A stretch of 64,000 nt of DNA from a virus. Shown here in pieces: positions 8,928 to 38,127 of this stretch. A program made the position numbers and the translations under genes. The notes below the pieces were generated by a model. It saw only the letters and a program-made list of their open reading frames with translations. It had not been told where the DNA came from and made no database searches. The stretch lies in the IMG/VR virus record IMGVR_UViG_3300047678_000169, positions 16,239-80,238 of that record; one strand, 5' to 3'. How positions within the stretch are numbered: position 1 is the first letter of the stretch; each line of letters opens with the position of its first letter.

Positions 8928-9748
8928 AAACCCAATTCCTCTTTAAAATTATCAAATAACCAAGCAGTAACATCATTTCTGAATTTTACATCGCCCGTGA
9001 TATGAACCACGTTGGTTATGTCTTTGAAGGAAGTTTTGGGGTCTAATTTGCGACCCAATGCGTCAATCTGGCCGTCAAATAGAGTCCTTAACGTGTAATC
9101 CATGACATTGAACGAACGCGGTAGCAATGTGACAGGAAACTTGTTGTCTCTTACTGTAAAATTGAGAATGGTTTGGTCATCGGTAAAATCAGGAGATTTA
9201 TTAACTTCACACCACTTTTTATATTCTCTATGAAAAAATTCATATACCTCGTCCAAAGCCTTCTTATGTTTTTTACTGTATATGACCATACCACCATTGA
9301 TGTAATTTTCCCAAGAAACATCGGTTACTGTTGGAAACCAGTTTTCTCTAACCATTCTTATTGAACGGTTGAGTGCCGGTGCATATCCTCCGTCTGGACA
9401 ACCCCCGAAGTTGCCATCAACCATCTTGAAAAAATCTGGCGCCCAAGGCATAATGAATGTATCCCAATCAACCGCACATACTTGTTCAAATTCAATCTTG
9501 TTTTTCTCAAGTGCGTCTATAATCTTCATTCGCTGAAAGATTCCTGGAACCTTAGCTTGGTCTTCAAATTCCGTTTCAAGAAATATGAATTGATAACCAT
9601 GTTTTTCACACCACGCGTGCCACGAATAAGCGCATCTTTGAACAAATGGTTGATGTGGGGGCGTGGTTGGGCCACGCATTGCAGTCATACACACTACGTT
9701 TTTCATATTGGCATCTCCTTGAAAGTTCTTATCCAAGCCCATCTCCAC
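8924..9748 (-). CDS. Glycosyltransferase (GT8/GT34-like); true start probably near 9706
   Basis: VDWDT, YINGG, DDQTILN, VVHITG. Confidence 0.8.
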   Translation of the reverse strand: MEMGLDKNFQGDANMKNVVCMTAMRGPTTPPHQPFVQRCAYSWHAWCEKHGYQFIFLETEFEDQAKVPGIFQRMKIIDALEKNKIEFEQVCAVDWDTFIMPWAPDFFKMVDGNFGGCPDGGYAPALNRSIRMVRENWFPTVTDVSWENYINGGMVIYSKKHKKALDEVYEFFHREYKKWCEVNKSPDFTDDQTILNFTVRDNKFPVTLLPRSFNVMDYTLRTLFDGQIDALGRKLDPKTSFKDITNVVHITGDVKFRNDVTAWLFDNFKEELGL

Positions 9749-10476
9749 AACTGTGCAATACTTTTATTATGTTTATCTTCTTCTGTCAAAGTTCTTCCCT
9801 TAGAGAATGTATTTCCATTCATCCTCTGTGATTGTAATTTTTTATGTTCTTCCGTCCAAGTTTTACCAAGAGAATATTTGTTACCTATAGCGCTTTTACT
9901 AAGCTTTTGTTTGTGTTCATCGGAAAGTTTTTTTCCAAGAGTAGCGGTGTTTCCCATTTTTGCTATTGATAATTTCTTCCTATATTCATCAGATTTCATC
10001 ATTGTCTGGAATTTTTCACTGTTCTTCATTCCATTAGATATTTTCTTCAATGTCTCTTTACAGACATTTGATGGGCTGTCCCCAGCTCCATAACAATTAT
10101 ATCCATTATGAACCGAATCTTTTTTATTTATCCAAAAATTTTCTCTACCTTTCAACCCAATTAAATTTGGTCGCTGTTCAAGTATATGAAAAACAAAATT
10201 TTCTATTCCATGCTTCATAATGGCTCTATAAAGTTTCCACTGTTTTGAAAATTTCAATTTCTTATAGTCTCCCCACCGTTTATGTATGTTCTTGCTCCTT
10301 CCAACATACCATTTATCAGGCTTGATTTTATTTTGTATTCCATACACACCAATGATTTCAGTCTTTAGATGCCCAATATCGTTGCATTTGAATTTTTTTA
10401 TATCGTTCTTTATTTCGAGCGTAGTGTTCTCTTTTCCACCGTTTTTCAGCCTCTTGTTTTTCTTTAGTAGATTCAT
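9703..10476 (-). CDS. GIY-YIG homing endonuclease with NUMOD3 repeats
   Basis: GVYGIQN..WYVGRS..RW, ENFWI, GYN; repeated EHKQKLS motifs. Confidence 0.85.
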   Translation of the reverse strand: MNLLKKNKRLKNGGKENTTLEIKNDIKKFKCNDIGHLKTEIIGVYGIQNKIKPDKWYVGRSKNIHKRWGDYKKLKFSKQWKLYRAIMKHGIENFVFHILEQRPNLIGLKGRENFWINKKDSVHNGYNCYGAGDSPSNVCKETLKKISNGMKNSEKFQTMMKSDEYRKKLSIAKMGNTATLGKKLSDEHKQKLSKSAIGNKYSLGKTWTEEHKKLQSQRMNGNTFSKGRTLTEEDKHNKSIAQLWRWAWIRTFKEMPI

Positions 10477-10541: not shown

Positions 10542-11429
10542 TTATTGAACTATTTCTAACATTTCTTTTACAACGGATTTGGTTGTAAGATTCTTTCTCG
10601 TGTGGTCTAACAATTGATTGACGGTATCTTTATACCAATTCATATCTATTTTTGCGCTAGCAACTACCTCGTTGGATTTCAATATCAATTCCTTTGGAAA
10701 TTTCATCATTGTTTCTGGAGGACATTTTTCCAAGTCCGGAAAATATGGTATGCAGCCGTTCATAAGGATTTCTAGGTGTCTAAGCGTGTCCCACCCCCCC
10801 TTTTTGAAAGTCAAGCCAAAATATGATTTCTGATAGTCTTCGAAGTAAGGTTTCTCCTCATCGAAAATGTATGTTTCCAACTTTCCAGGTTGAACAGTTC
10901 CCCAATCTTGGGATTTCTCTGGAACAGAAGACAATACTTTTTCTTCTGGTATACAGAAATTAATAGGATGTAATCTATCAGTTGGAGAAGTATTCAATTC
11001 ACGTTTGAAAAGGTGACCGCCAACATCAATAAGACTATAATCAATTCCCTGATGGTCTTCTCCGTCGATGAAAATAATCTTACCCTTGTTGTAGACTTTC
11101 AATACTTCTTGTATGTAATCTTGACAACGAGTGATTGAGCCATAAACAACGTAATCAAAATACTTGGAACGAATTTTATCGACCAAATCTATTCTTAGAG
11201 AGTCGTCTATGTCTTCAAACGTTCCATACAACGTAAATCCTCTTCCATAGCTTCTACCTTGGTCTGGAACTCTCTCAGTCCAATACTGCTCCTTGTCTTT
11301 TTTATACATATGCCAAATTTTATTAGCATCAATTACATCAGCTCCAAAAAGAGAGCGCAGACCGTGAAACACCATGTCCGATTGAAAATCTGGTAAATCT
11401 CCCTTAGCTATGAATAGAATTTTCATCAT
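10542..11429 (-). CDS. Putative glycosyltransferase (GT-B-like)
   Basis: FIDGED, YFGLTFKKGGWDTLRHLEILMNGCIPYF; glycan-island context. Confidence 0.7.
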   Translation of the reverse strand: MMKILFIAKGDLPDFQSDMVFHGLRSLFGADVIDANKIWHMYKKDKEQYWTERVPDQGRSYGRGFTLYGTFEDIDDSLRIDLVDKIRSKYFDYVVYGSITRCQDYIQEVLKVYNKGKIIFIDGEDHQGIDYSLIDVGGHLFKRELNTSPTDRLHPINFCIPEEKVLSSVPEKSQDWGTVQPGKLETYIFDEEKPYFEDYQKSYFGLTFKKGGWDTLRHLEILMNGCIPYFPDLEKCPPETMMKFPKELILKSNEVVASAKIDMNWYKDTVNQLLDHTRKNLTTKSVVKEMLEIVQ

Positions 11430-12154
11430 TATATTATGGCTCTACCATGTGGTTTTGTCAATGAGAATTTAATATCATCTCTCACGGCCAAAGAAATTTG
11501 TCTAGCTGAAAAATAAGTGGCCAAGATATTCTCAGCGTTTTCAAAGTGGTGTGAATTTAGGTTGGTCACAAACCTTGGAACATATAGAAAACATTCACAA
11601 GCAGCAGTCATAACGTCCGGCCTTCCCCAAAATATTTGGTCAATGATTCCCATGTGGCCGGTTCTTACGATTAGATTTCCAATTTCAATGTCTTTGATAC
11701 TTGGTTCGACAATATCTTGAACAAGTTCCGTGTCGAATCGGAGCCTAACTACAGCATCATAGGTTGTTCCAGTTTCTGCTGAATAAACAATTCTCAGATG
11801 GTCAGCATCATATATCTTTCGAAACATCGAATTGTTTTGAGACAGTTGAGAACCATTTCTGGTTACTATACCCTTCCATTTGGTTTCTAATCTATTTACA
11901 GAACCATCGGTAGCTCTCTCGATGTGGAAATTTCCATGAACTGGCTTGTAGGTGGATAAAAGCCTATCGGTTACGTCGCTAAATTCAAGAGGCGTTGTTG
12001 CATGATGAACGAATTGGACGCCCACGCCACTCTCCACCCAACTGGATAAGAATACATCGCAATCATACTTATCCAACAAAAATTGTTTCAATGCTGGATA
12101 GGTTAATTTGTCCCCATCACGTAAATGACCAGATATACAGACAGCTATTTTCAT
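11429..12154 (-). CDS. Putative glycosyltransferase-like protein
   Basis: MKIAVCISGHLR...YDAVVRLRFD...DQIFWG, a pattern common in glycan loci. Confidence 0.6.
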   Translation of the reverse strand: MKIAVCISGHLRDGDKLTYPALKQFLLDKYDCDVFLSSWVESGVGVQFVHHATTPLEFSDVTDRLLSTYKPVHGNFHIERATDGSVNRLETKWKGIVTRNGSQLSQNNSMFRKIYDADHLRIVYSAETGTTYDAVVRLRFDTELVQDIVEPSIKDIEIGNLIVRTGHMGIIDQIFWGRPDVMTAACECFLYVPRFVTNLNSHHFENAENILATYFSARQISLAVRDDIKFSLTKPHGRAII

Positions 12155-12648
12155 TGTAAATCTTTCTTGAGTTGTTCAACGTTTTTAGAGCATATTCCAT
12201 ATGCTTTCTTCATTTCTTCTCTAGACCACCCATTCTCCTCAGGCATTACTAATACACTTCTTGGTAAAGCAAATTTATAAGGATTGTTAACATGTGTCCA
12301 AACATAAGCTCGGCTGGTGATGGTATAGTCATCCTCTTGATGCCAAAAATAATGCATAGGATTGAATGTAGCCGTCAACCATCTTGGACACGATGAAAGG
12401 ACGCTCAAAGCATCAATGTTCTTACAATGGAGCCACAACCCATCCTTGAATATGAAATCACTTGGAACTTCATATTCAGGTTTGTCATGTCCTAAGAACC
12501 ACTTACCATCGATATATCGAATATCAACCTCGACATCATATCCGAGCATCAAAGCAAAGTTGACCCTTTCTGGATGATTTTCTAATCCAGAATTTGGCCC
12601 GGCTATCAATGCTCTGTGTGCGATTAATTTCAAGACTTGATTCCCCAT
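12151..12648 (-). CDS. Glycerophosphodiester phosphodiesterase-like (PLC-like) protein
   Basis: IAHRA, ENHP, DVEVDI, LGHD, WLHCKN, YFWHQ, GICS. Confidence 0.8.
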   Translation of the reverse strand: MGNQVLKLIAHRALIAGPNSGLENHPERVNFALMLGYDVEVDIRYIDGKWFLGHDKPEYEVPSDFIFKDGLWLHCKNIDALSVLSSCPRWLTATFNPMHYFWHQEDDYTITSRAYVWTHVNNPYKFALPRSVLVMPEENGWSREEMKKAYGICSKNVEQLKKDLQ

Positions 12649-13835
12649 TTGTTCACAGCAATACCATATTCCATTCCATATGCCTTATCGATAGATTGTC
12701 TGATGGCTCTTGCTCCGGCAACCGTTCCCATTGGGTGTCCGTGAATGGCTCCCCCAACGTTTGCCATATAATCTACTCCAAATCGTTTGTTGATACCTTC
12801 AATCAATCCGGCGTGCATACCACAGCTCAAAGCTGGGACTACGTTTCCATCACGAAGAACCTTTAAGGTCTTTTGCAAATCTTCTTCTGATTCGCTCATA
12901 TATCCACCCCACATTCCTGAATGGATTGTGTCAGCTCCCATCAAGGCAGCTAGCTGACAGATAATATCCCAAGCGATGCTGAAGCGGTGTGATTTGTCGG
13001 TGAATACTTTGTCGCCACTCTTTTGAAAGTGAAGATACAACGGGAGGTCCAATCTTCTAACTGAATTATATGCTCCAAGACCACACCAAACATTCAAGTG
13101 AATACCATTGCCACCAGCATCAGCAACAAATTTGGCTCTGTCCAAGATAGCGTGTGGGTCAGCATTGATGGCGGTGCAATAGACCACCTTGCGGCTTTGA
13201 TTGTTGAGCCAATTTGAAATCAATGGAACTCTTTCCTTTAAAGAACACACCGATGGGTTGGATAGAATTTCGTCTTCTTTGATAAAATCTACTCCACCAT
13301 CAACCAACTCCTTTACCATTTCCAATAGAATCTTTGGAGAAATTCCAGTTTTTGGTTTGATGATAGCTCCAAACAGAGGCTTGTCATATTGGCCTGTGTA
13401 GTTTCTCATTCCGGAGAAACCGTATTTTGGTCCTTTAAAATGCTTCTTGACGTTATCAGGAATATCTAAACCAATCAAACGACAGCCTTGAATTATGTCA
13501 ATATCCATTTGTCCTCCCATTAGTTGACACAATAGGTGAGAAATACCATCATCTTCCCAATCGGTGTTTGCTACTGGAAATCCAATTCTAATGTCTCCAT
13601 GTGTCTTCTTTCGTAGGTCATCTTCAGTAAATTCGGTTATAACAATACACGAATGATTTTCAAATAATTCATCTGTTTCGTGAATGCTACGCACGTTTGG
13701 ATTACCAACACTCTGACCAATGGCTAGGTTCCATGCTGCGTCTCTAAGATTTGAGTCGAGCGTAGAACGCAATTGATACGTGGCAATTACATAATCGTTC
13801 TGATTAACATCTGTCAGTGGTTTAAATAACTTCAT
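12630..13835 (-). CDS. RuBisCO-like protein (form IV, RLP)
   Basis: FKGPKYG, GAIIKPKTG, GGVDFIKEDE, DTIHSG, PALSCG, GGAIHGHPMGTVAGARA; lacks E60, N123, H294 and K334 equivalents of true RuBisCO. Confidence 0.92.
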   Translation of the reverse strand: MKLFKPLTDVNQNDYVIATYQLRSTLDSNLRDAAWNLAIGQSVGNPNVRSIHETDELFENHSCIVITEFTEDDLRKKTHGDIRIGFPVANTDWEDDGISHLLCQLMGGQMDIDIIQGCRLIGLDIPDNVKKHFKGPKYGFSGMRNYTGQYDKPLFGAIIKPKTGISPKILLEMVKELVDGGVDFIKEDEILSNPSVCSLKERVPLISNWLNNQSRKVVYCTAINADPHAILDRAKFVADAGGNGIHLNVWCGLGAYNSVRRLDLPLYLHFQKSGDKVFTDKSHRFSIAWDIICQLAALMGADTIHSGMWGGYMSESEEDLQKTLKVLRDGNVVPALSCGMHAGLIEGINKRFGVDYMANVGGAIHGHPMGTVAGARAIRQSIDKAYGMEYGIAVNKWGIKS

Positions 13836-14145
13836 ATTTGTCGTTTGGTAGTGAGGGTGATTTGATGCACAAAACTTTACAGTCTTCGTGAAAAATTGGG
13901 TCGGCTACTTCACCAGCATCAATGGTGAATATGTCGCCTTTGGATAATAGCGTTCCACATATCGTCATACTTCCTTCTAAGAGGACGTTATGTTCAATAG
14001 CTACTTTGTGATAATGCTTGGGCCATTTTTCGTCCTTCTTATGGGTAAGAACACCAATTTCAACGTAGTCAGTCTTCCATATCGAAGGATTGAAATTTCC
14101 AACGAACCAACCACGATGCATATCACTTAATTTAAGAACTTTCAT
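13822..14145 (-). CDS. Cupin-fold protein
   Basis: GWFVGNF, HYHK..IEH metal-binding motif, PSLPNDKY. Confidence 0.8.
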   Translation of the reverse strand: MKVLKLSDMHRGWFVGNFNPSIWKTDYVEIGVLTHKKDEKWPKHYHKVAIEHNVLLEGSMTICGTLLSKGDIFTIDAGEVADPIFHEDCKVLCIKSPSLPNDKYEVI

Positions 14146-14897
14146 TTTGAATTCTCAAGTTCTACAAACTTAGCTAAATCTTCGGGAGTTCCGACAGCGT
14201 GATGTTGTTCATTTGGGATGTGATATACACCAACGGAAACTCCTCTATTTATAAGATAGTTGTATGTTGGGCCAACGTAATACTCTCCATTTGGTGCGGT
14301 ATCTTTCAAACGAATCATTTCTTCGGCTGAAGACACAAAATCCCTTCCTTGTTTCCAATAATGAATTCCGTTGAGGGAGATGTTGCTAATAACCTTTTTC
14401 TCCTTTACCTCCACAACATATCCCGACCTATCCAACTTAGCATAACTGTTCTTTGGAGTTTCTGAAAAGTATGTGACGATTGTTCCTGAATTGTATCTAG
14501 CATTGTGTAGAAATAAATCAGAATTCCACCACATTACTTGGTCACAATTTGCCACTACTAACTCTTCATTGTTGTCGATTTTGTCCTTAAATAACAAAAC
14601 AGAAGACGCCGGGCCAGCGGTTACATAATCGATTTCAACAAACTCAGCATTTGGAAGTATTGAATGAACCACACTCTTGAGCTTGGAAGTGTATGCGTCC
14701 TTTCTGACAACGAAATGATACTTGCCAGGCAGATTCAATGACTTGATTGCCTTAACAATCATTGGTTCTCCATTAATGTCAATTAGTGGCTTTGGGATAG
14801 AATATCCTGCGTCAGCGAAACGTGAGCCGATTCCGGCCATTGGTATTACGATGTTCATACTTGCTTTGGTGGGTATTTGTGCTTCACTTGATTCCAA
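14142..14897 (-). CDS. Sugar/polyol-phosphate nucleotidyltransferase; start probably MNIVIPM near 14858
   Basis: IPMAGIGSRF..GY..PKPLI, NCDQ, EKKVIS, GEYYV, GTPEDL. Confidence 0.9.
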   Translation of the reverse strand: MESSEAQIPTKASMNIVIPMAGIGSRFADAGYSIPKPLIDINGEPMIVKAIKSLNLPGKYHFVVRKDAYTSKLKSVVHSILPNAEFVEIDYVTAGPASSVLLFKDKIDNNEELVVANCDQVMWWNSDLFLHNARYNSGTIVTYFSETPKNSYAKLDRSGYVVEVKEKKVISNISLNGIHYWKQGRDFVSSAEEMIRLKDTAPNGEYYVGPTYNYLINRGVSVGVYHIPNEQHHAVGTPEDLAKFVELENSK

Positions 14898-15595
14898 TAG
14901 TTAATCCAAGATGCTGCTGGTGGGTGGAGTTTGTGATAGAATAATTCATCATCTGGTAAATTGTTGTAGTCCATATACCATCCGTAGTGATGTGCCTGAT
15001 ACAAACCACCAGTTCTGATGGAATTGGTGGAATAGGCTCCGTGAAAATTTGGGCGATTGAGGGCGAATGTCGTGTCGATAGTGGCACGATAAACATCTGG
15101 CTTCAGTGGTTCTTTCCAAAAAGTTGATTCATGAACGAGGACTTGTTCTTTGAGGGGATAGTGGTCTGGCAAATCATCAAGCTTCAATCCAAAACCAACC
15201 TTGTCAGGATTGAATTCTTGCATGATGTTGTAGAAATGCTCTAAGAAATTCTCAGGACAGTCTTTTGCTGGAATTACATCATTGTCGGTTAAAACATTAT
15301 AACTTCCCGTAAACATGGCTCCAAGATAGGTTCTTTCAAACACCAAAGGTCCAGATTCTCCATGTTCAAATCGATGAACGGTGAACATCTTACCATCATA
15401 CGCCTTTAAAAAATCAAGAAGAGGTTGATAGGTAGAACCACAGTCAGCTATATGGAGATTCTTATACCCTCTACTTGTCAATGCTTCCAATTGTTGAACC
15501 ATACAGTTCAATCGATTGTGACAGACAATGATAATGGGAATTTCTTTGAAGTTCATGTAAGAATATCGAAGTGTAATCCATTTTCTTTCTCCCAT
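14855..15595 (-). CDS. Glycosyltransferase family 2-like
   Basis: IIIVCHNR, IADCGSTY, VLTDND, IDTTFAL. Confidence 0.8.
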   Translation of the reverse strand: MGERKWITLRYSYMNFKEIPIIIVCHNRLNCMVQQLEALTSRGYKNLHIADCGSTYQPLLDFLKAYDGKMFTVHRFEHGESGPLVFERTYLGAMFTGSYNVLTDNDVIPAKDCPENFLEHFYNIMQEFNPDKVGFGLKLDDLPDHYPLKEQVLVHESTFWKEPLKPDVYRATIDTTFALNRPNFHGAYSTNSIRTGGLYQAHHYGWYMDYNNLPDDELFYHKLHPPAASWINYWNQVKHKYPPKQV

Positions 15596-16362
15596 TCCTT
15601 TGTGGTGATATTCAAATCAACAGGAGAAAAATGGCTTACACCATGTTTGACATAAGGATATAAACCAAAACGGGAAGAAAGCCAAGGAAAAACTACTTCT
15701 CCATACCATCTATTTTTGATGCGTGTCTTAAAATAAGAATCTGGAGCTTTTTTTAGAAACCAAGACACAACGCTACCTTTGATAACATAAAAAGTCTCAA
15801 CGTAAGACCAATTAACATGAGTATATTTTAGTTCGTCAAAAGGTATGTTCTGAACGATTGGCATTTCTCCGTGGTCGAACTCTAAATGGTCAAGAGTCTT
15901 CCATTGAGTATGTCCGTCAGCCGATTGGCCAACCCCATAATGTCCATAGACACCGATGGAAGGATTTCTATCCAACAGTGCTTCAATTTCTGTTCTTTTG
16001 GATAGAAATTCATTGAGATAGTATTCGAATCTATCCTGACGGTCATTTACTCCACCTTTGGTATGGGCGAACCACACGTTCTTATATGGTTCCTTTGTCC
16101 TCATTCTCATTGCTTTTAAGGCAGCTTGAGTTCCAGATGCGTCTGACTCACAATATAATTCCCTCGGCACCACTGATACCACAAGATTTTGGTGTTTGGA
16201 GCTCAATATTTTGTTATAGACTTCATTGCAAGTGTCTGGATTGATTCCTACGAATACATCAGCATCGGCGAAAGTGGTTTCCAATACCTCTAACCACCTA
16301 TCAATCATCCAAGCTTTGGAAGAGTTGAAAATAGAAACGGAAAATACGACAGCAGATTTCAT
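15553..16362 (-). CDS. Glycan-locus hypothetical protein (GT-like)
   Basis: VWFAHTKG motif; context. Confidence 0.55.
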   Translation of the reverse strand: MKSAVVFSVSIFNSSKAWMIDRWLEVLETTFADADVFVGINPDTCNEVYNKILSSKHQNLVVSVVPRELYCESDASGTQAALKAMRMRTKEPYKNVWFAHTKGGVNDRQDRFEYYLNEFLSKRTEIEALLDRNPSIGVYGHYGVGQSADGHTQWKTLDHLEFDHGEMPIVQNIPFDELKYTHVNWSYVETFYVIKGSVVSWFLKKAPDSYFKTRIKNRWYGEVVFPWLSSRFGLYPYVKHGVSHFSPVDLNITTKEWEKENGLHFDILT

Positions 16363-17297
16363 TGAATGTGGTGTTTTAAGTCTTCAACCGAAGCAGCTAT
16401 TCCAGCATCCATTTCAAATATTGGGCTCCATCCGGTATCTATCCACAATTTGTAATTGCTGATGTGGGTGCTTTTAACGTCCCAATCTGGAGGTTTACAA
16501 TATTCGATTGTAATTTCCGTATTTGTTTCTTTGGATACTTGCCTAATAATATCGTTTATAGAGTAAGACCTTCCGCTACATACATTGTAGGTTCCGACCA
16601 AATCATCTTCAAGAATAGCCTCAATGGCTCGAATAAAATCTAAGTAATAGATAAAATCTTTGGTCGCCCTGCCATCTCCCCAGATTCTTAAAGTTTCATG
16701 TTTAATGGCTGCTTGTATAACCATTGGTATGATGCCCTGTATTTGATTTCTACCATTTGGAATGTATTTTCCATATGGATTGGTAATTCTCAAATTCAAA
16801 TGGTCCGGAGCTTGAGACACTATTCTTTCAGCAAATAGTTTTGCTTGAGCATACCAACCAATCGGATTCATATATGTCAGAGATTCATCTTTCTGGACAT
16901 ATAGTTCAGACCCATCGGGAAAAATTGTTCTAGCAATTGCTTCGCCATAAACGGCACCGGTGGAAAAGAATACAAGTTTGGTTCCACTTTCGGTGGCGTG
17001 TTGAGTTAACAATCTGACATTGTGATAATCCTCTGAGGTGTTCCAAGGACTTCTTTTCATTTCGGCTATCGATGGAACGGTGGTCCATGATAAATGAAAC
17101 ACATAATCAGATTTTTTTAGATAATCGGAGTTGAACAATAGTTTAACATCTTCATAACCTTTGCCGGGCGTCCTTGAAAAAAGAGTGACTTCATATTTCT
17201 GTGGGTCGAGATATGATTTGATTAGTGTTGCTAGGCGGCCACGGCCACCTGTAACAAATACTCTCTTCTTTCTTTCAGCCATGTTAGTATTTAACAA
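16359..17297 (-). CDS. NAD-dependent epimerase/dehydratase
   Basis: VTGGRGRLA, STGAVYG, YAQAK (YxxxK), NPYG, WGDG..TKDFIY. Confidence 0.92.
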   Translation of the reverse strand: MLNTNMAERKKRVFVTGGRGRLATLIKSYLDPQKYEVTLFSRTPGKGYEDVKLLFNSDYLKKSDYVFHLSWTTVPSIAEMKRSPWNTSEDYHNVRLLTQHATESGTKLVFFSTGAVYGEAIARTIFPDGSELYVQKDESLTYMNPIGWYAQAKLFAERIVSQAPDHLNLRITNPYGKYIPNGRNQIQGIIPMVIQAAIKHETLRIWGDGRATKDFIYYLDFIRAIEAILEDDLVGTYNVCSGRSYSINDIIRQVSKETNTEITIEYCKPPDWDVKSTHISNYKLWIDTGWSPIFEMDAGIAASVEDLKHHIQ

Positions 17298-17886
17298 TCT
17301 TTACCAATTTGTCGTTGTTGAAGAATTCTACGCTCTTTATGTTTTCAGATACAAATTTATTCTCTTCGTAAGATAGATGTGGGCTAGCAAATGAATTGGT
17401 TGTTTCCCAATTTCTCAACAAGAAGTCGGTTCTCTCAGCAGCTGGATACAAGGGACAGGTGTGAAGGTCTTCGATGAAATAAATTCCTCCAGACTTCAAG
17501 GCCTTCAATAGAACAAAGAGGCTGACCTGTTGGTGTGGCATTTGGTGTGCTCCATCATCAACGATGAAATCAAGAGGTTCCATATCAGGAATCATACTAT
17601 TCAAGTGCTCTCTATTGGTTTGGTCTAGAATATAGACCTTTTCACAAATACTCTTGTCAAAGAATGAAGAACAATCATTAATATCCATTCCCCAGAGCTT
17701 CATTTCTGGATTATATTCTTTCCACATTCTCAAAGAATCTCCATGCCAAATCCCAATTTCAAGAAGTTTGACTGGGCCTTCACTTGGGACATATTTCTCA
17801 TACGTCAATGTATAGGAATGTTTTTCAAACCATTCCGTTCCTTTGTCTGCGTGGTGCTTGTTAGCAATTTCTGTTAAATTTCTCAT
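17284..17886 (-). CDS. Class I SAM-dependent (sugar O-)methyltransferase
   Basis: DKG...HSY, LLEIG, DQT, IVDDGAH, GGIYFIED. Confidence 0.85.
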   Translation of the reverse strand: MRNLTEIANKHHADKGTEWFEKHSYTLTYEKYVPSEGPVKLLEIGIWHGDSLRMWKEYNPEMKLWGMDINDCSSFFDKSICEKVYILDQTNREHLNSMIPDMEPLDFIVDDGAHQMPHQQVSLFVLLKALKSGGIYFIEDLHTCPLYPAAERTDFLLRNWETTNSFASPHLSYEENKFVSENIKSVEFFNNDKLVKIVKY

Positions 17887-18617
17887 GTTAGTAGTATTGT
17901 GTAGTAGTCTTGAGTTTTTCTCATATAGTCGTCAGTCACTTCTGAGCCTGTGGATGGACCAGAAACAATGAGTCCTCTTAAATAATGTGACCTTAATTCA
18001 ATCAAGTGTTCGATGTTTTCTTGAAAGTTTGGCATCATTGGTGGATGGATGGATAATAGAGTTGGAGGAATCTCATTCCTCAAGAATATAGATTTAGCTA
18101 CAGCATATTCCCCACCCTCAATATCAATCTTTACAAAGTTAATATTACCAGCTTCTTCAATTATAGAACTGACATAATCATCTAAGGTCATACACTCCGT
18201 TTCAAATGATAGCTCAGGCCTGAAATTTCCAACTCTTGTTACACTTTCTCCAAGTCTATTGTCGGAGCCCAACGTCATCTTTCCTTTGTAATCAGATAGA
18301 GCAAATTGATTCACTATGATGTTGGTGAATCCATTTAATGCTATGTTCTTGAACAGTTCTTCTTGAGCAACTGGGTCTGGTTCAAAGCAGTGAACTTTCT
18401 TGGCTAGTTGGGAGCCGTATAAGACGGTTGGACCTATCCACGCCCCAATGTCCAGATAACTTCTGTCTTTTACCAAGTGTTCATCAAAAATCTTATAAAT
18501 TTCCGATTCCCATCCGGAGTTTCCCCAAAATGGTCCGTTCGGAGTTCCTTCTGTAACATTAAATGTGAGATTGTTTCTTTTTACGTTCATAGGCCCATAT
18601 TTTCTTTTTGTGACCAA
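17883..18617 (-). CDS. FkbM-family methyltransferase
   Basis: LDIGAWIG, FEPDP, KIDIEGGE. Confidence 0.9.
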   Translation of the reverse strand: MVTKRKYGPMNVKRNNLTFNVTEGTPNGPFWGNSGWESEIYKIFDEHLVKDRSYLDIGAWIGPTVLYGSQLAKKVHCFEPDPVAQEELFKNIALNGFTNIIVNQFALSDYKGKMTLGSDNRLGESVTRVGNFRPELSFETECMTLDDYVSSIIEEAGNINFVKIDIEGGEYAVAKSIFLRNEIPPTLLSIHPPMMPNFQENIEHLIELRSHYLRGLIVSGPSTGSEVTDDYMRKTQDYYTILLT

Positions 18618-19282
18618 TTCTTCAAATAGAATTCGTTTTGTTTTGTTTGTCTTTCGATGGTCTTATCGTGTATCAGAGAGAAATTAACATCAATTGGCAA
18701 TTCCGCAACAACCTTGGCTCCGGAGATTCTTTCATGTAGCTTTCTCTCCCACTTAATATCAGATGTATTTCTATAGATTCTGCCCTGTTTGTCTCCTGAG
18801 TTCCAGTTGATAATTGGTAGACCAGGAAACTCTTCCAAGAACGATACATGCCACCCCCATCTTTTAGCATCGGCCTCGGTCAAACCTCTGACAATATTAA
18901 CTCTTGGAACCCTATACAACTCTACAGATGGATTCGATTCCAATATCTCATGTATGTTCTCAATCAAAAAATCAGAAGGATATTCGTCAGCGTCTATTTG
19001 AAATACCCAACGATTTTTACAGTTGAGGGTTCCGAAGTTTTTATGTGCTCCAAAATCCCCATCTAAGTTGTGCTTGATTACTCTTCCCAATTTGGAAGAT
19101 GTGCTGAACAATGGGTGGAAAGCCAGTATCTTCTTAGTCTCTTCATTTGTTGAATTATCATCAACAATGATGATTTCATCGTCGGTGTTAGCAACGGTGT
19201 GATATAGTTTTTCAAGAAGCCGACTCAATTCGTCGGCTTCGTTGTGAACCGTTATCAAGTAAGAGATACTTGACTTAGCCAT
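18587..19282 (-). CDS. Glycosyltransferase family 2
   Basis: ITVHNE, VDDNS, FQIDADE, LHE. Confidence 0.88.
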   Translation of the reverse strand: MAKSSISYLITVHNEADELSRLLEKLYHTVANTDDEIIIVDDNSTNEETKKILAFHPLFSTSSKLGRVIKHNLDGDFGAHKNFGTLNCKNRWVFQIDADEYPSDFLIENIHEILESNPSVELYRVPRVNIVRGLTEADAKRWGWHVSFLEEFPGLPIINWNSGDKQGRIYRNTSDIKWERKLHERISGAKVVAELPIDVNFSLIHDKTIERQTKQNEFYLKNWSQKENMGL

Positions 19283-19285
19283 GAA

Positions 19286-20902
19286 TTACATTCCTTCTTG
19301 TGGAATCTGCTGTTGAATTTGCTCGGCCTCATCTTCAATGTCAGCAATCATACATTCGGTGGTCAATAATAGACCAGCGATGGATGCAGCGTTTTGAAGA
19401 GCGGTGCGCGTGACCTTTGTTGGGTCAACAACTCCGGAAACAACCAAGTCTTGATAAACATCGGTTGCGACATTGTAACCGTAATTTCCCGTGTTCTTCA
19501 ACACTTCACTTACTACAACGTCTCCACTCTTTCCTGCATTTGAACACAGCATCTTGATTGGGTGTTCGATGGCTCTACGAACAATTTGAGCTCCAATTTG
19601 TTCATCGCCTTCTAACTTGAGAGCGTCAATAACCGAAGCACATCTCAATAGAGCAACTCCTCCACCCGGAACAATTCCCTCTTCAACTGCGGCACGTGTT
19701 GCGTGCAAGGCATCTTCAACACGGTCTTTCTTTTCTTTCATTTCGGATTCGGTGGCTGCGCCCGTGTGGACAACTGCAACTCCGCCAGTTAGTTTGGCAA
19801 GGCGTTCTTGAAGCTTCTCACGCTCGAAGTCAGAAGTCGATTTCTCAATTTCATTCTTAATGAGCTTAATACGAACTTCAATGGCAGCTGGTTTGCCCGT
19901 TCCGCCGATGATGGTGGTGCTATCCTTTGTTACAATAATCTTCTTAGCCTGACCCAAATCAGCAAAGGTTAATTTGTCAAGATTGAGCCCAAGCTCAGAG
20001 GTAATCAATTTTGCTCCAGTGATGGTCGCAATGTCCTCGAGGGTAGCACGGCGTCTATCACCAAATCCAGGTGCCTTAACAGCACATGAAACGAAAGCTC
20101 CACGAACTCTGTTTACAACCATAAAGGCGAGAGCATCACCCTCAACATCTTCAGCTATAACAAGGAGCTTCTTTCCCATCTTAGCAATTTCTGTAAAGAA
20201 TTTGGCCAATGGGGCTATGGTGGTGAGCTTCTTTTCGATAACCAGAACCAAAGCGTCATCAAGAACAGCTTGTTGGGTTTCTTGGTCTGCAAAATAAGCG
20301 GAAATGAATCCCTTATCGAACTGCATACCCTCAACGACCTCAAGAGTCGTATCCATTGAGCTAGCTTCTTCAACGGTGATTGTTCCATCCTTACCAACCT
20401 TATCCATGGCGTCGGCAATAATGTTACCAATTGAGGTATCCCAGTTGGCGGAGACGGTGGCGACCTGGCGAATCTCTTCGCTGCTGCTTACCTTTTTAGA
20501 GATTTTGGCTAATTCTGCTACAGCAGCTACTACAGCCTTGTCGATACCACGCTTCAAATACACCGGATTTGCGCCAGCGGCTACGGTCTTTAGACCTTCA
20601 CGATAGATTGCGGATGCAAGAACCGTTGCGGTGGTTGTTCCGTCTCCGGCCAAATCGTTGGTCTTGGAAGCAACTTCTTTTACCATTTGAGCACCCATGT
20701 TCTCAAACTTATCTTTGAGTTGAATAGACTTAGCAACCGTAACTCCGTCTTTGGTAATCAATGGAGAACCAAATCCACGTTCGATGGCGACATTGCGACC
20801 CTTGGGCCCCAATGTTACACTGACCGCATTTGATAGGGTTGTTACTCCAGCCAAGATTTTATTTCTGGCCTCTGCACTAAATAGGATTTCTTTTGATTTC
20901 AT
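19286..20902 (-). CDS. groEL: Chaperonin GroEL
   Basis: [37 protein letters not shown]; lacks the GGM tail. Confidence 0.98.
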
Positions 20903-37722: not shown

Positions 37723-38127
37723 TGGTGGACCTGCGGGGAGTTGAACCCCGGTGTTTCATAAATTGCTCATCAGACATATACAAGCGTTAACACGGTGGAT
37801 ATGATTGTGGTTAGTAGTGTGCTCCACAAAAATTAGAGTCAGTAGTTTCTTCGTTGTTACAGTCTCACTTTCTCACAACGAACATATCAGCAGAGGTTGA
37901 CGTATTGACCCACTTATCTGCGTGGTGGAATACGGACTGCTCAGTTTATTAAGCAGCGACAGCCATAGCGGCTCCAACGTTCTTCGCCTTGCGGAGAAGT
38001 GTTAGAACATTTAGCTTAGCAAGATTTCTCTTAGCATTTAGTTTTTGTAATCAGGATTATGCAGGATGTTTACCACCTGCGCTTGCGTTCCGAGCTCAAC
38101 CCATAAAGTCGAATCCTGGACAGGCCC
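37723..38127 (-). ncRNA. ssrA: tmRNA
   Basis: 5' GGGCCUG..GGAUUCGAC; 3' T arm plus CAGGUCC-A-CCA with G3.U70; tag ORF 38035-37949 (AKRNLAKLNVLTLLRKAKNVGAAMAVAA) after the UAAAU resume context. Confidence 0.93.

Follow-up and report, generated by a model that had tools for sequence, protein, structure and literature searches.

In a conserved cassette centred on a nucleotidyltransferase (NT), the RuBisCO-like protein (RLP) described here probably provides the NT, encoded beside it, with an unusual ketose or polyol phosphate to activate for glycan decoration. The constant neighbourhood of RLP and NT, together with the fusions found in phages, bacteria and archaea, suggests a putative glycan-building role for the RuBisCO fold.

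The occurrence of RLPs in phages had already been published. 'Form IV-like' RuBisCO-related proteins are reported from phages and Beckwithbacteria (Jaffe, Castelle, Dupont & Banfield 2019, Mol Biol Evol; PMC6389311), and the accessible portion of that paper describes the phage RLPs, from IMG/VR and large phage contigs, as highly divergent from other RLPs, with catalytic residues partly conserved and no function assigned. The RLP studied here most likely belongs to this group, by its phage location and divergence. The same portion of the paper makes no mention of a linkage to an NT, a cupin or a miniature GDPD-fold protein, of fusions, or of cellular homologues beyond Beckwithbacteria.

A cassette within a longer array of glycan genes

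The stretch of DNA analysed (the window; 64,000 nt) comes from a large uncultured phage of a moss metagenome. Only two sequencing runs are listed as containing it, both of moss-metagenome DNA and possibly its source; no RNA run is among them. It is a jumbo-phage fragment with a CheckV completeness of 29% in the IMG/VR record, and the contig carries 33 tRNAs and one tmRNA as well as PHROG matches to a helicase, an exonuclease and an endonuclease; these features identify it as viral, not cellular. The RLP gene lies in a series of four overlapping minus-strand genes encoding, in order, the NT, a cupin, the RLP and a GDPD-like phosphodiesterase (mini-GDPD), with reading frames as first described and overlaps of 4, 14 and 19 nt between consecutive genes (Table 1). 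The linkage of these four genes stands, but the module is longer than the four-gene unit originally proposed, as genes for a DUF7796-like and a GT-B-like protein are translationally coupled downstream, the former overlapping the mini-GDPD gene by 4 nt and having one base in common with the latter. Upstream of the NT gene, a tightly packed array occupies the same strand (14855..19282), and the GT2, GT-B, SDR and methyltransferase genes in the window bear out the earlier placement of the cassette in a glycosyltransferase island. A promoter and terminator scan found neither element more commonly than in shuffled sequence (38 versus 37.7 promoters and 11 versus 10.5 terminators), so the limits of the operon are drawn from gene overlaps only. 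The NT is likely to start at the ATG at 14858 rather than at the TTG at 14897; at this ATG, the start codon and the stop codon of the upstream gene overlap as ATGA, and NT homologues align only from residue 14-16 of the longer ORF onward.

Table 1. Genes of the cassette and its surroundings, with window coordinates
Feature	Coordinates	Strand	Evidence or remark
Nucleotidyltransferase (NT), GlmU/RmlA/HddC-like fold	14142..14858	-	PF12804, phrog_3980, PDB 4evw; ORF extendable to TTG at 14897
Cupin, 107 aa, single domain	13822..14145	-	phrog_24762, AF2 model, Foldseek
RuBisCO-like protein (RLP), 401 aa, NT-linked clade	12630..13835	-	PF00016, active-site map, tree
Miniature GDPD-fold phosphodiesterase, 165 aa	12151..12648	-	phrog_34507, AF2 model, invariant motifs
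DUF7796-like 'capsular polysaccharide biosynthesis' protein, candidate transferase	11429..12154	-	phrog_13607, Atlas
GT-B-like putative glycosyltransferase, 295 aa	10542..11429	-	Atlas structural neighbours
Unknown protein, upstream array	14855-15595	-	
Unknown protein, upstream array	15553-16362	-	
SDR epimerase/dehydratase, upstream array	16359-17297	-	
Methyltransferase, upstream array	17284-17886	-	
Methyltransferase, upstream array	17883-18617	-	
GT2, upstream array	18587-19282	-	

The RLP retains the metal site and has lost residues of carboxylating RuBisCO

With 136.1 bits against PF00016 (RuBisCO_large; E 2e-39, gathering score 30.1 bits), the RLP is a member of the RuBisCO large-subunit superfamily. 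Active-site residues were mapped by HMMER alignment to PDB 8dht and in an alignment of 103 sequences. Retained are K160 and K162 (equivalent to K175 and K177) and K186, D188 and E189 (K201, D203 and E204), that is, the Mg/carbamate site, as well as H305 (H327) and G361/G362 (G403/G404). Replaced are E60 by G40, N123 by G108, H294 by Q271, R295 by K272 and K334 by Y312/M313. These calls agree with those originally made for this protein, with the correction that H327 is Q in 42 of 81 viral relatives. Replacement of E60, N123, H294 and K334 (by G, G, Q and Y/M) extends to all 103 clade members, among which Q271, Y312 and C338 form an invariant active-site signature. Residues of the distal phosphate site vary (K or S at R295, D or A at H298, H or Q at H327), and the resulting K/D/H and S/A/Q subtypes showed no correlation with the presence of the cupin. 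The residue set of carboxylating RuBisCO (forms I-III) is thus incomplete, and with 179.5 bits the protein falls short of the rubisco_III cut-off of 497; on the sequence, the loss of E60, N123, H294 and K334 rules out carboxylation, in keeping with the initial assignment to the non-carboxylating members of the superfamily.

Scores against NCBIfam models range from 110 to 180 bits and reach none of the cut-offs (409-700), including those for MtnW/YkrW (NF007095, 162.6 versus 409 bits; TIGR03332, 125.8 versus 513.6) and OiaX (150.4 versus 700). Among solved structures, 2oej and 2zvi are some of the nearest (E ~1e-34 to 1e-27). The RLP query matched 3,029 database clusters at E <= 0.001, the best 120 being 61-94% identical, and relatives are encoded at 256 IMG/VR loci; among INPHARED phages, neither a tblastn match to the RLP nor a megablast match to the cassette region was found.

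In a tree whose reference set held no named YkrW, IV-Photo, form II or form III sequences, the NT-linked RLPs form a single clade (SH-aLRT 100), distinct from the sampled sequences of form I and of the OiaX-like and DeepYkrW-like kinds. Five alphaproteobacterial proteins of the OiaX-like kind (410-431 bits) and ten further alphaproteobacterial RLPs of 362-463 aa each form a clade of their own with support of 100, and the phage RLP falls outside both. For the ten short proteins we infer the label 'DeepYkrW-like', with no named reference in the tree; PRK09549 is the best NCBIfam model for the seven of them that were run. The RLP therefore belongs to no characterised RLP group tested, by score or by tree, as had been anticipated.

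Comparison with characterised RLPs shows what the fold can accommodate. The DeepYkrW RLP of R. rubrum, a 5-methylthioribulose-1-phosphate isomerase, is likewise a non-carboxylating RLP paired with a small cupin (a cupin methylsulfurylase, in the MTA-isoprenoid shunt) and uses a pentulose phosphate as substrate; the two are likely to share an enolisation mechanism at the Mg/carbamate site. In contrast to it, the phage RLP lies in a separate clade with the Q271/Y312/C338 signature, has an obligate NT linkage, and is surrounded by biosynthetic glycan genes instead of sulfur salvage genes. MtnW/YkrW, a 2,3-diketo-5-methylthiopentyl-1-phosphate enolase, shares the fold but differs from the RLP in score and in its methionine-salvage neighbours. 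OiaX, the 3-oxo-isoapionate-4-phosphate decarboxylase of apiose catabolism (IV-NonPhoto), is an RLP that acts on a branched sugar-acid phosphate, which indicates that the RuBisCO fold can take unusual sugar phosphates; its context is catabolic, however, and its clade is a different one.

Proteins encoded with the RLP

The NT exceeds the cut-off of PF12804 (NTP_transf_3; 29.8 versus 27 bits), matches phrog_3980 (E 6e-57) and PDB 4evw (E 4.6e-16), and contains the N-terminal G-x-G-x-R loop as MAGIGSRF. It scores far below the cut-offs of all NCBIfam equivalogs and is no equivalog of LicC, TarI or IspD; by HMM it is nearest to the anomeric sugar-1-phosphate NTs GlmU, RmlA and HddC.

The cupin stays under the Cupin_2 cut-off (16.7 versus 27.2 bits) and matches phrog_24762 (E 2e-31). 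Its fold is backed by an AF2 model (pLDDT 96.8) with 182 Foldseek matches at E <= 0.001, all of those listed being cupin-fold proteins; archaeal phosphomannose isomerases of minimal size rank first (7zvm/7zvy, E 6e-6, rmsd 2.3 A over 88 columns). Residues H35, E39, H44, H46 and E51 are conserved, and a sequence search against the PDB matched neither R. rubrum cupins nor those of methionine salvage.

The mini-GDPD matches phrog_34507 (E 1.5e-24), with no Pfam match at E up to 10 (PF03009 included) and no PDB sequence match. Its AF2 model (pLDDT 91.7) aligns with GDPD 1o1z at Z 10.7 over 153 residues, and each of its best 22 VIA matches is a GDPD, PLD or SMase D (Z 8.1-10.7). Across 36 homologues the motifs HR..EN..ExD..GHD do not vary (H11, R12, E23, N24, E40, D42 and H54). 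The model supports assignment of a predicted GDPD fold, comprising a TIM barrel, catalytic His/Arg, metal-binding Glu/Asp and a second His. With its 165 aa, it is an unusually small barrel.

The DUF7796-like protein, a match to phrog_13607, resembles DUF7796 and capsular clusters (Atlas feature score 0.98, TM 0.8), and the structural neighbours of the GT-B-like protein in the Atlas carry Glyco_trans_1_2, RXYLT1_C or GT47 (TM 0.70-0.79). Membership of the DUF7796-like family in LicD was considered and rejected (hhalign probability 0.4% against the Legionella LicD), and hhalign found no relation to a WavE-like neighbour. The phage record contains no LicD and no GDPD Pfam match.

RLP and NT are linked across phages and cells

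RLP and NT occur together at 77 of 80 viral loci, and in cells they are adjacent at 39 of 42 loci, the exceptions being short or truncated contigs; the cellular loci span SAR11, Legionellaceae, Azospirillum, Verrucomicrobia and DPANN archaea. The mini-GDPD (69/80 viral loci) and the cupin (57/80) are less constant, as are the DUF7796-like family (37/80, often in multiple copies) and the GT-B-like protein (15/80). Natural fusions join RLP, NT and cupin (P0125, P0126) or RLP and a GT-B-like homologue (P0127). The conserved core is RLP plus NT, with cupin and mini-GDPD as accessories missing from many loci; of the linkage that the initial annotation expected to be conserved, the RLP-NT pair holds and the complete set of four does not.

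The NT family has other partners. Its fusion partners are DHBP synthase (RibB) in Synechococcus phage S-SKS1 (PF00926, E 5e-65), a methyltransferase and, most commonly, beta-phosphoglucomutase-like HAD domains (S-CAM9 and many metagenomic proteins); the fused NTs nest within the RLP-linked NT clade. Cultured cyanophages possess the NT and mini-GDPD, in some cases with cupin and DUF7796, without an RLP, which suggests that the RLP fills a variable supply slot. RibB and RLP are not simple alternatives, since they co-occur in loci L012 and L065.

In cells, the surroundings point to glycans. A LicD phosphotransferase and an ABC-2 exporter adjoin RLP-NT in four Legionellaceae genomes, a complete Pelagibacter genome has GT9, a CMP-sugar synthetase and a HAD-NT in the RLP neighbourhood, and Azospirillum has PAPS synthesis genes and GT41; LicD was not found in five DPANN genomes. 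The biosynthetic, glycan-related context first proposed is thus upheld in phages and cells alike, and the product, whether branched-chain or not, and the reaction are wholly what we infer.

A possible route to an activated ketose or polyol phosphate

In the pathway we favour, the RLP would act on a ketose phosphate, the most plausible being a pentulose phosphate out of the pentose-phosphate pool; it would enolise this substrate by means of the retained Mg2+/carbamylated-lysine site and K175 and then isomerise or rearrange it with no addition of CO2. The NT would couple the phosphate ester so formed to an NMP to yield an NDP-linked donor, possibly a CDP-linked one, and transfer of the unit to a glycan of the virion or the host envelope would fall to the DUF7796-like and GT-B-like proteins. 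The cupin, which resembles sugar-phosphate isomerases, and the mini-GDPD, through phosphodiester chemistry, may provide optional tailoring or editing.

A donor linked through a primary phosphate, and hence phospho-sugar or phospho-alditol transfer as with CDP-ribitol or CDP-choline, is slightly favoured over an anomeric NDP-sugar, because all characterised RLP substrates are, to our knowledge, primary phosphate esters, CDP donors are the source of the phospho-alcohols that LicD-family enzymes transfer, and DHBP, made by the ribulose-5-phosphate enzyme RibB, bears a primary phosphate. An activated sugar or polyol phosphate fits both the adjacency of LicD in Legionella and the fusion of NT with RibB in a cyanophage. 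In the LicC/LicD (CDP-choline), TarI/TarJ (CDP-ribitol) and AbpA/AbpB (CDP-xylulose to CDP-arabinitol) pathways, a primary phosphate ester is activated by an NT that shares the fold of the present one, and the unit is then placed on a glycan by a transferase, of the LicD family or another; LicD adjoins RLP-NT in Legionellaceae. We know of no RuBisCO-fold enzyme in any of these pathways. Against this reading, the HMM nearness of the NT to GlmU, RmlA and HddC and its HAD partner favour a classical NDP-sugar, which no RLP chemistry known to us yields, and the LicD adjacency is limited to one lineage.

Alternatives to the proposed route

The order of steps might be reversed, the NT first making an NDP-linked ketose on which RLP and cupin then act as enolase, epimerase or ketoisomerase. 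AbpA, the pneumococcal xylulose-5-phosphate cytidylyltransferase, is a precedent for such an order, small cupins with NDP-ketosugar isomerase activity are known, the fusions run RLP-NT-cupin, and the variability at R295, H298 and H327 would suit a bulky nucleotide at the distal phosphate site. We nevertheless regard this order as unlikely, as we know of no RuBisCO-superfamily enzyme with a nucleotide-linked substrate and the other NT partners, RibB and HAD, act on free sugar phosphates.

Salvage of SAM by-products is improbable. RLP and cupin would here work as in methionine salvage or the MTA-isoprenoid shunt, recycling the methylthio- or 5-deoxy-pentoses that arise from radical-SAM enzymes or from the many methyltransferases of the phage. 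This reading has little probability even with methyltransferases close by and RLP-cupin pairs in Rhodospirillum and Rhodopseudomonas (PMC5893883, PMC4958253). The RLP clade stands apart from DeepYkrW-like RLPs, its MtnW score is well short of the cut-off, MtnA, MtnP and MtnK were not seen among the neighbours, and the cupin has no sequence match to solved methionine-salvage cupins and is missing at many loci where the NT, nearly universal and sometimes fused, is present.

Two further readings are very improbable, and to about the same degree. Transfer of the activated unit to modified bases of the phage genome would accord with the frequency of DNA decoration in jumbo phages and with the NT homologue of Ralstonia phage phiRSL1, which adjoins a gene annotated as HMC glucosyltransferase, but cellular clade members lie in LPS, capsule or exporter clusters, and no base-modifying enzymes such as hydroxymethylases were found adjoining the cassette. 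A catabolic auxiliary module would have the mini-GDPD cleave host glycerophosphodiesters or teichoic-acid-like polymers, RLP and cupin feeding the products to central metabolism; the GDPD fold is mostly hydrolytic, and structural matches include the GDPD domain of the phage K receptor-binding protein, yet the cassette can do without the mini-GDPD, the genes around it encode transferases, methyltransferases and epimerases and no catabolic enzymes, and the NT has no role in catabolism.

A genuine CO2-fixing or form III-type nucleotide-salvage RuBisCO has next to no probability despite the retained metal/carbamate site, K175/K177 and P1 glycines, given the clade-wide replacements, the rubisco_III score and the form III-like gene that DPANN genomes carry in addition to, and separate from, the NT-linked RLP.

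Implications

Characterised RLPs function in sulfur and methionine salvage or in sugar-acid catabolism. This large clade is tied to an NT in the glycan gene clusters of phages, Legionella and DPANN archaea, and of SAR11, which ranks with the most abundant bacteria of the sea. More tentatively, its RLP may catalyse a reaction new to the RuBisCO fold, isomerising or rearranging a ketose phosphate of the pentose-phosphate pool to give the compound from which a nucleotide-activated keto-sugar or alditol phosphate is made for the surface glycans of these organisms. If so, this would be the first biosynthetic, glycan-building role for the RuBisCO superfamily. Several carriers, such as Azospirillum oleiclasticum, are cultured, and the four enzymes are small, with confidently predicted or well-known folds, so the question is directly testable. 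The reaction would be a new activity for one of the best-studied enzyme folds, and it could reveal a new building block of the phage and bacterial surface glycans that shape phage-host recognition.

Organization and viral setting of the RLP cassette

The four genes described as an overlapping cassette in the initial annotation, which encode a nucleotidyltransferase (NT), a cupin, the RuBisCO-like protein (RLP), and a 165-aa protein, do overlap head to tail on the minus strand, and the gene array is gapless on both sides of them. NT probably begins with the ATG at 14858, where its start codon and the stop codon of the upstream gene overlap in an ATGA. Upstream of the cassette reside two genes of unknown function together with genes for an SDR epimerase/dehydratase, two methyltransferases, a GT2 protein, and GroEL. 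The GroEL gene abuts this glycan array, and the order GroEL-GT2-methyltransferase-methyltransferase is common to the window and L001, its closest viral relative.

The phage origin proposed for the contig is upheld by its IMG/VR record, by 33 tRNA genes and a tmRNA gene, and by phage helicase, exonuclease, and endonuclease families. The source record spans 80 kb (CheckV completeness 29%), nearly all genes in the window point one way, and the sequencing runs containing this DNA are exclusively moss metagenomes. Dense tRNA arrays like the one found here are typical of jumbo phages.

Features of the window, including the RLP cassette
Feature	Position	Strand	Remarks
NT	ORF 14142-14897	minus	Pfam NTP_transf_3 barely over cut-off
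Cupin, 107 aa	13822-14145	minus	Pfam Cupin_2 under cut-off
RLP, 401 aa	12630-13835	minus	Pfam RuBisCO_large, E 2e-39
165-aa protein (mini-GDPD)	12151-12648	minus	no Pfam match
DUF7796-like 'capsular' protein	11429-12154		downstream of cassette
GT-B-like protein	10542-11429		downstream of cassette
GIY-YIG/NUMOD3 homing-endonuclease-like	9703-10476		immediately downstream of cassette
GroEL	19286-20902		phrog_5725, E 4e-167; 3 nt from GT2 gene
tmRNA	37723-38127	minus
33 tRNA genes and tmRNA	37723-63459	minus	densely packed, small ORFs between

The model of the 165-aa protein is confident (pLDDT 91.7), and GDPD, PLD, and SMase D enzymes account for all of its top 22 structural matches (Z 8.1-10.7, ~150 residues aligned). 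Moreover, the catalytic motifs HR, EN, ExD, and GHD are invariant across 36 homologs. Judged by its predicted fold, this protein (mini-GDPD) is a genuine GDPD-fold enzyme, unusually compact, which escapes detection by sequence profiles. The structures nearest to the modeled cupin (pLDDT 96.8; conserved residues H35, E39, H44, H46, and E51) are minimal phosphomannose isomerases of Thermococcus. NT scores far below all NCBIfam equivalog cut-offs, and its nearest structure is an uncharacterized Vibrio NDP-sugar pyrophosphorylase (PDB 4evw).

RLP and NT form the conserved core

A search with the RLP returned 3,029 database clusters (E <= 0.001), the best 120 of which share 61-94% identity with the query, and relatives are encoded at 256 IMG/VR loci. 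Among the 80 best of these viral loci, NT adjoins RLP in 77, mini-GDPD is nearby in 69, and the cupin in 57; DUF7796-like genes, often in multiple copies, occur in 37 and an SDR gene in 28. The two recurrent gene orders are NT-cupin-RLP-(methyltransferase)-GDPD and a cupin-less GDPD-NT-RLP. Clade members also occupy 42 cellular loci, whose carriers include a complete Pelagibacter chromosome, three named Legionella species, Azospirillum oleiclasticum, a Verrucomicrobia chromosome, and many DPANN archaea. NT adjoins RLP in 39 of these, the other three being short or truncated contigs, and just some contain the cupin and mini-GDPD. Natural fusions join RLP, NT, and cupin in two proteins, and RLP with a homolog of the GT-B-like protein of the window in one. 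The proposed linkage is therefore conserved, and these counts and Rosetta-stone fusions define RLP and NT as its core, the remaining genes being accessory.

A Methyltransf_24 (CmcI-like) methyltransferase gene lies directly 3′ of RLP in many viral loci, and its product appears to be fused to mini-GDPD in a single ORF and to NT in several metagenomic proteins (L053:9265-10425; database proteins P0156, P0172, and P0205).

Phylogenetic placement and active site of the RLP

Every NCBIfam RuBisCO and RLP model scores the window RLP at 110-180 bits, against cut-offs of 409-700. In a tree that combined 39 members of the clade with 26 alphaproteobacterial proteins of the superfamily, built without named YkrW, IV-Photo, or form II/III sequences, the NT-linked RLPs form a single clade (SH-aLRT 100) apart from every reference group sampled. 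The references were assigned by HMM score to form I, to OiaX-like and DeepYkrW-like types, and to one additional group, ten of the 26 having been run against NCBIfam as representatives. Cellular sequences occupy the deepest branches of the clade, and its crown unites the viral sequences with SAR11 and Verrucomicrobia, a pattern that fits phage capture of the RLP gene from cells. Four of the five tiny DPANN genomes searched (G256, G258, G259, and G260; loci L092, L102, L108, and L123) encode a high-scoring form III-like RuBisCO (210-298 bits) and an NT-linked RLP on separate contigs, and in the fifth (G257, locus L099) just the NT-linked RLP was seen.

Approximately 80 'form IV-like' RLPs from phage contigs and Beckwithbacteria have been reported and placed outside other RLPs, with no function assigned to them (Jaffe et al., 2019; PMC6389311). 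The window RLP is most likely a new member of this published phage group. No paper returned by full-text literature searches connects RLPs with nucleotidyltransferases, cupins, or SAR11 O-chain clusters.

Active-site residues, listed with classical RuBisCO numbering first, were mapped by HMMER alignment to solved RuBisCOs and by a 103-sequence clade alignment. Retained are K175/K177 (K160/K162), the carbamylated lysine and metal ligands K201/D203/E204 (K186/D188/E189), S379, and the P1 glycines G381/G403/G404. Replacements invariant in both viral and cellular members affect E60 (G40), T65/W66 (N45/P46), N123 (G108), H294 (Q271), K334 (Y312), and G380 (C338), and three positions vary: R295 is K or S, H298 is D or A, and H327 is H or Q. 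This map bears out the residues initially called as kept or changed in the window RLP, although H327, present there, is not conserved by the clade as a whole. Judging from these sequences, carboxylation by clade RLPs is excluded, enolization at the Mg/carbamate site is plausible, and Q271, Y312, and C338 are candidate clade-specific catalytic residues. Viral RLPs fall into two subtypes at window positions 272/275/305, K/D/H and S/A/Q, the latter found in viral contigs only; subtype is independent of cupin presence.

NT pairs with alternative partners

Cultured cyanophages carry the NT family and mini-GDPD, sometimes with the cupin and a DUF7796-like gene, and no RLP. In Synechococcus phage S-SKS1 (HQ633071.1), NT is fused to DHBP synthase (RibB; PF00926, E 5e-65), implying a nucleotide-activated, DHBP-derived product in a cultured cyanophage. 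This fusion (L124:7040-8467; NT residues 8-185, DHBP synthase 259-447) is annotated simply as '3,4-dihydroxy-2-butanone 4-phosphate synthase'. The fusion partner of NT in S-CAM9 is, by Pfam, a HAD domain, and in Bellamy and SynMITS9220M01 the NT domain forms part of a 385-aa protein that carries a phosphatase annotation; HAD-NT and methyltransferase-NT fusions are abundant among metagenomic proteins. In the NT tree, the fused forms nest within RLP-linked NTs. Because NT is constant and its partners differ, RLP appears to fill a variable 'substrate supply' slot.

RibB, one alternative occupant of this slot, is a Mg-dependent enediolate enzyme that acts on ribulose-5-phosphate. At two viral loci, L012 and L065, the RLP cassette co-occurs with RibB and a transaldolase/FSA-type aldolase, which points to the pentose-phosphate pool. 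These loci hold the fullest module seen, a single co-directional array (~3.9-13.3 kb) in the order DUF7796, NT, two unknowns, Methyltransf_24 methyltransferase, cupin, RLP, mini-GDPD, unknown, RibB, 325-aa unknown, small protein, and TAL/FSA aldolase.

Cellular glycan contexts and a proposed biosynthetic role

By gene content, the cellular settings of RLP-NT are surface-glycan clusters. The Pelagibacter RLP is accompanied by GT9, a CMP-sugar synthetase, and HAD-NT, and that of Azospirillum by PAPS synthesis genes and GT41. The cultured strain A. oleiclasticum RWY-5-1-1 (L111) carries all four genes (GDPD, RLP, cupin, and NT), flanked on one side by a gene for a 1286-aa Pfam-less protein and on the other by CysD/CysNC (PAPS synthesis) and TPR-GT41, a setting suggestive of a sulfated glycan. 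A gene for a LicD-family phosphotransferase (E 6e-44) adjoins RLP-NT in divergent orientation in four Legionellaceae genomes, with an ABC-2 exporter nearby. Enzymes of the LicD family use CDP donors to transfer phospho-alcohols. Because neither the phage record nor any of five DPANN genomes contains LicD, this clue comes from a single lineage.

The best-supported reading of these data is a biosynthetic module in which RLP would form a non-standard ketose or polyol phosphate, NT would activate it, and neighboring transferases would place the activated unit onto a glycan; the isomerase-like cupin and the phosphodiester chemistry of mini-GDPD could provide optional tailoring. The suggestion that the RLP serves activated-sugar biosynthesis is supported by comparative genomics as regards context and linkage, from which we infer the reaction steps. 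We lean slightly toward a donor joined via a primary phosphate, of the CDP-ribitol/CDP-choline type, because every known RLP substrate is a primary phosphate ester, as is DHBP, and because LicD and the GDPD fold suit phosphodiester chemistry. A classical NDP-sugar donor, which we slightly disfavor, would better explain why NT resembles enzymes that act on sugar-1-phosphates and why it occurs fused to mutase-like HADs. Reversed step order, salvage of a SAM by-product, DNA hypermodification, catabolism, and CO2 fixation were also weighed as rivals to the biosynthetic module, and each was judged less probable. The NT-centered cassette and the biosynthetic role that it implies are undescribed in the literature searched, and comparative genomics strongly supports both.
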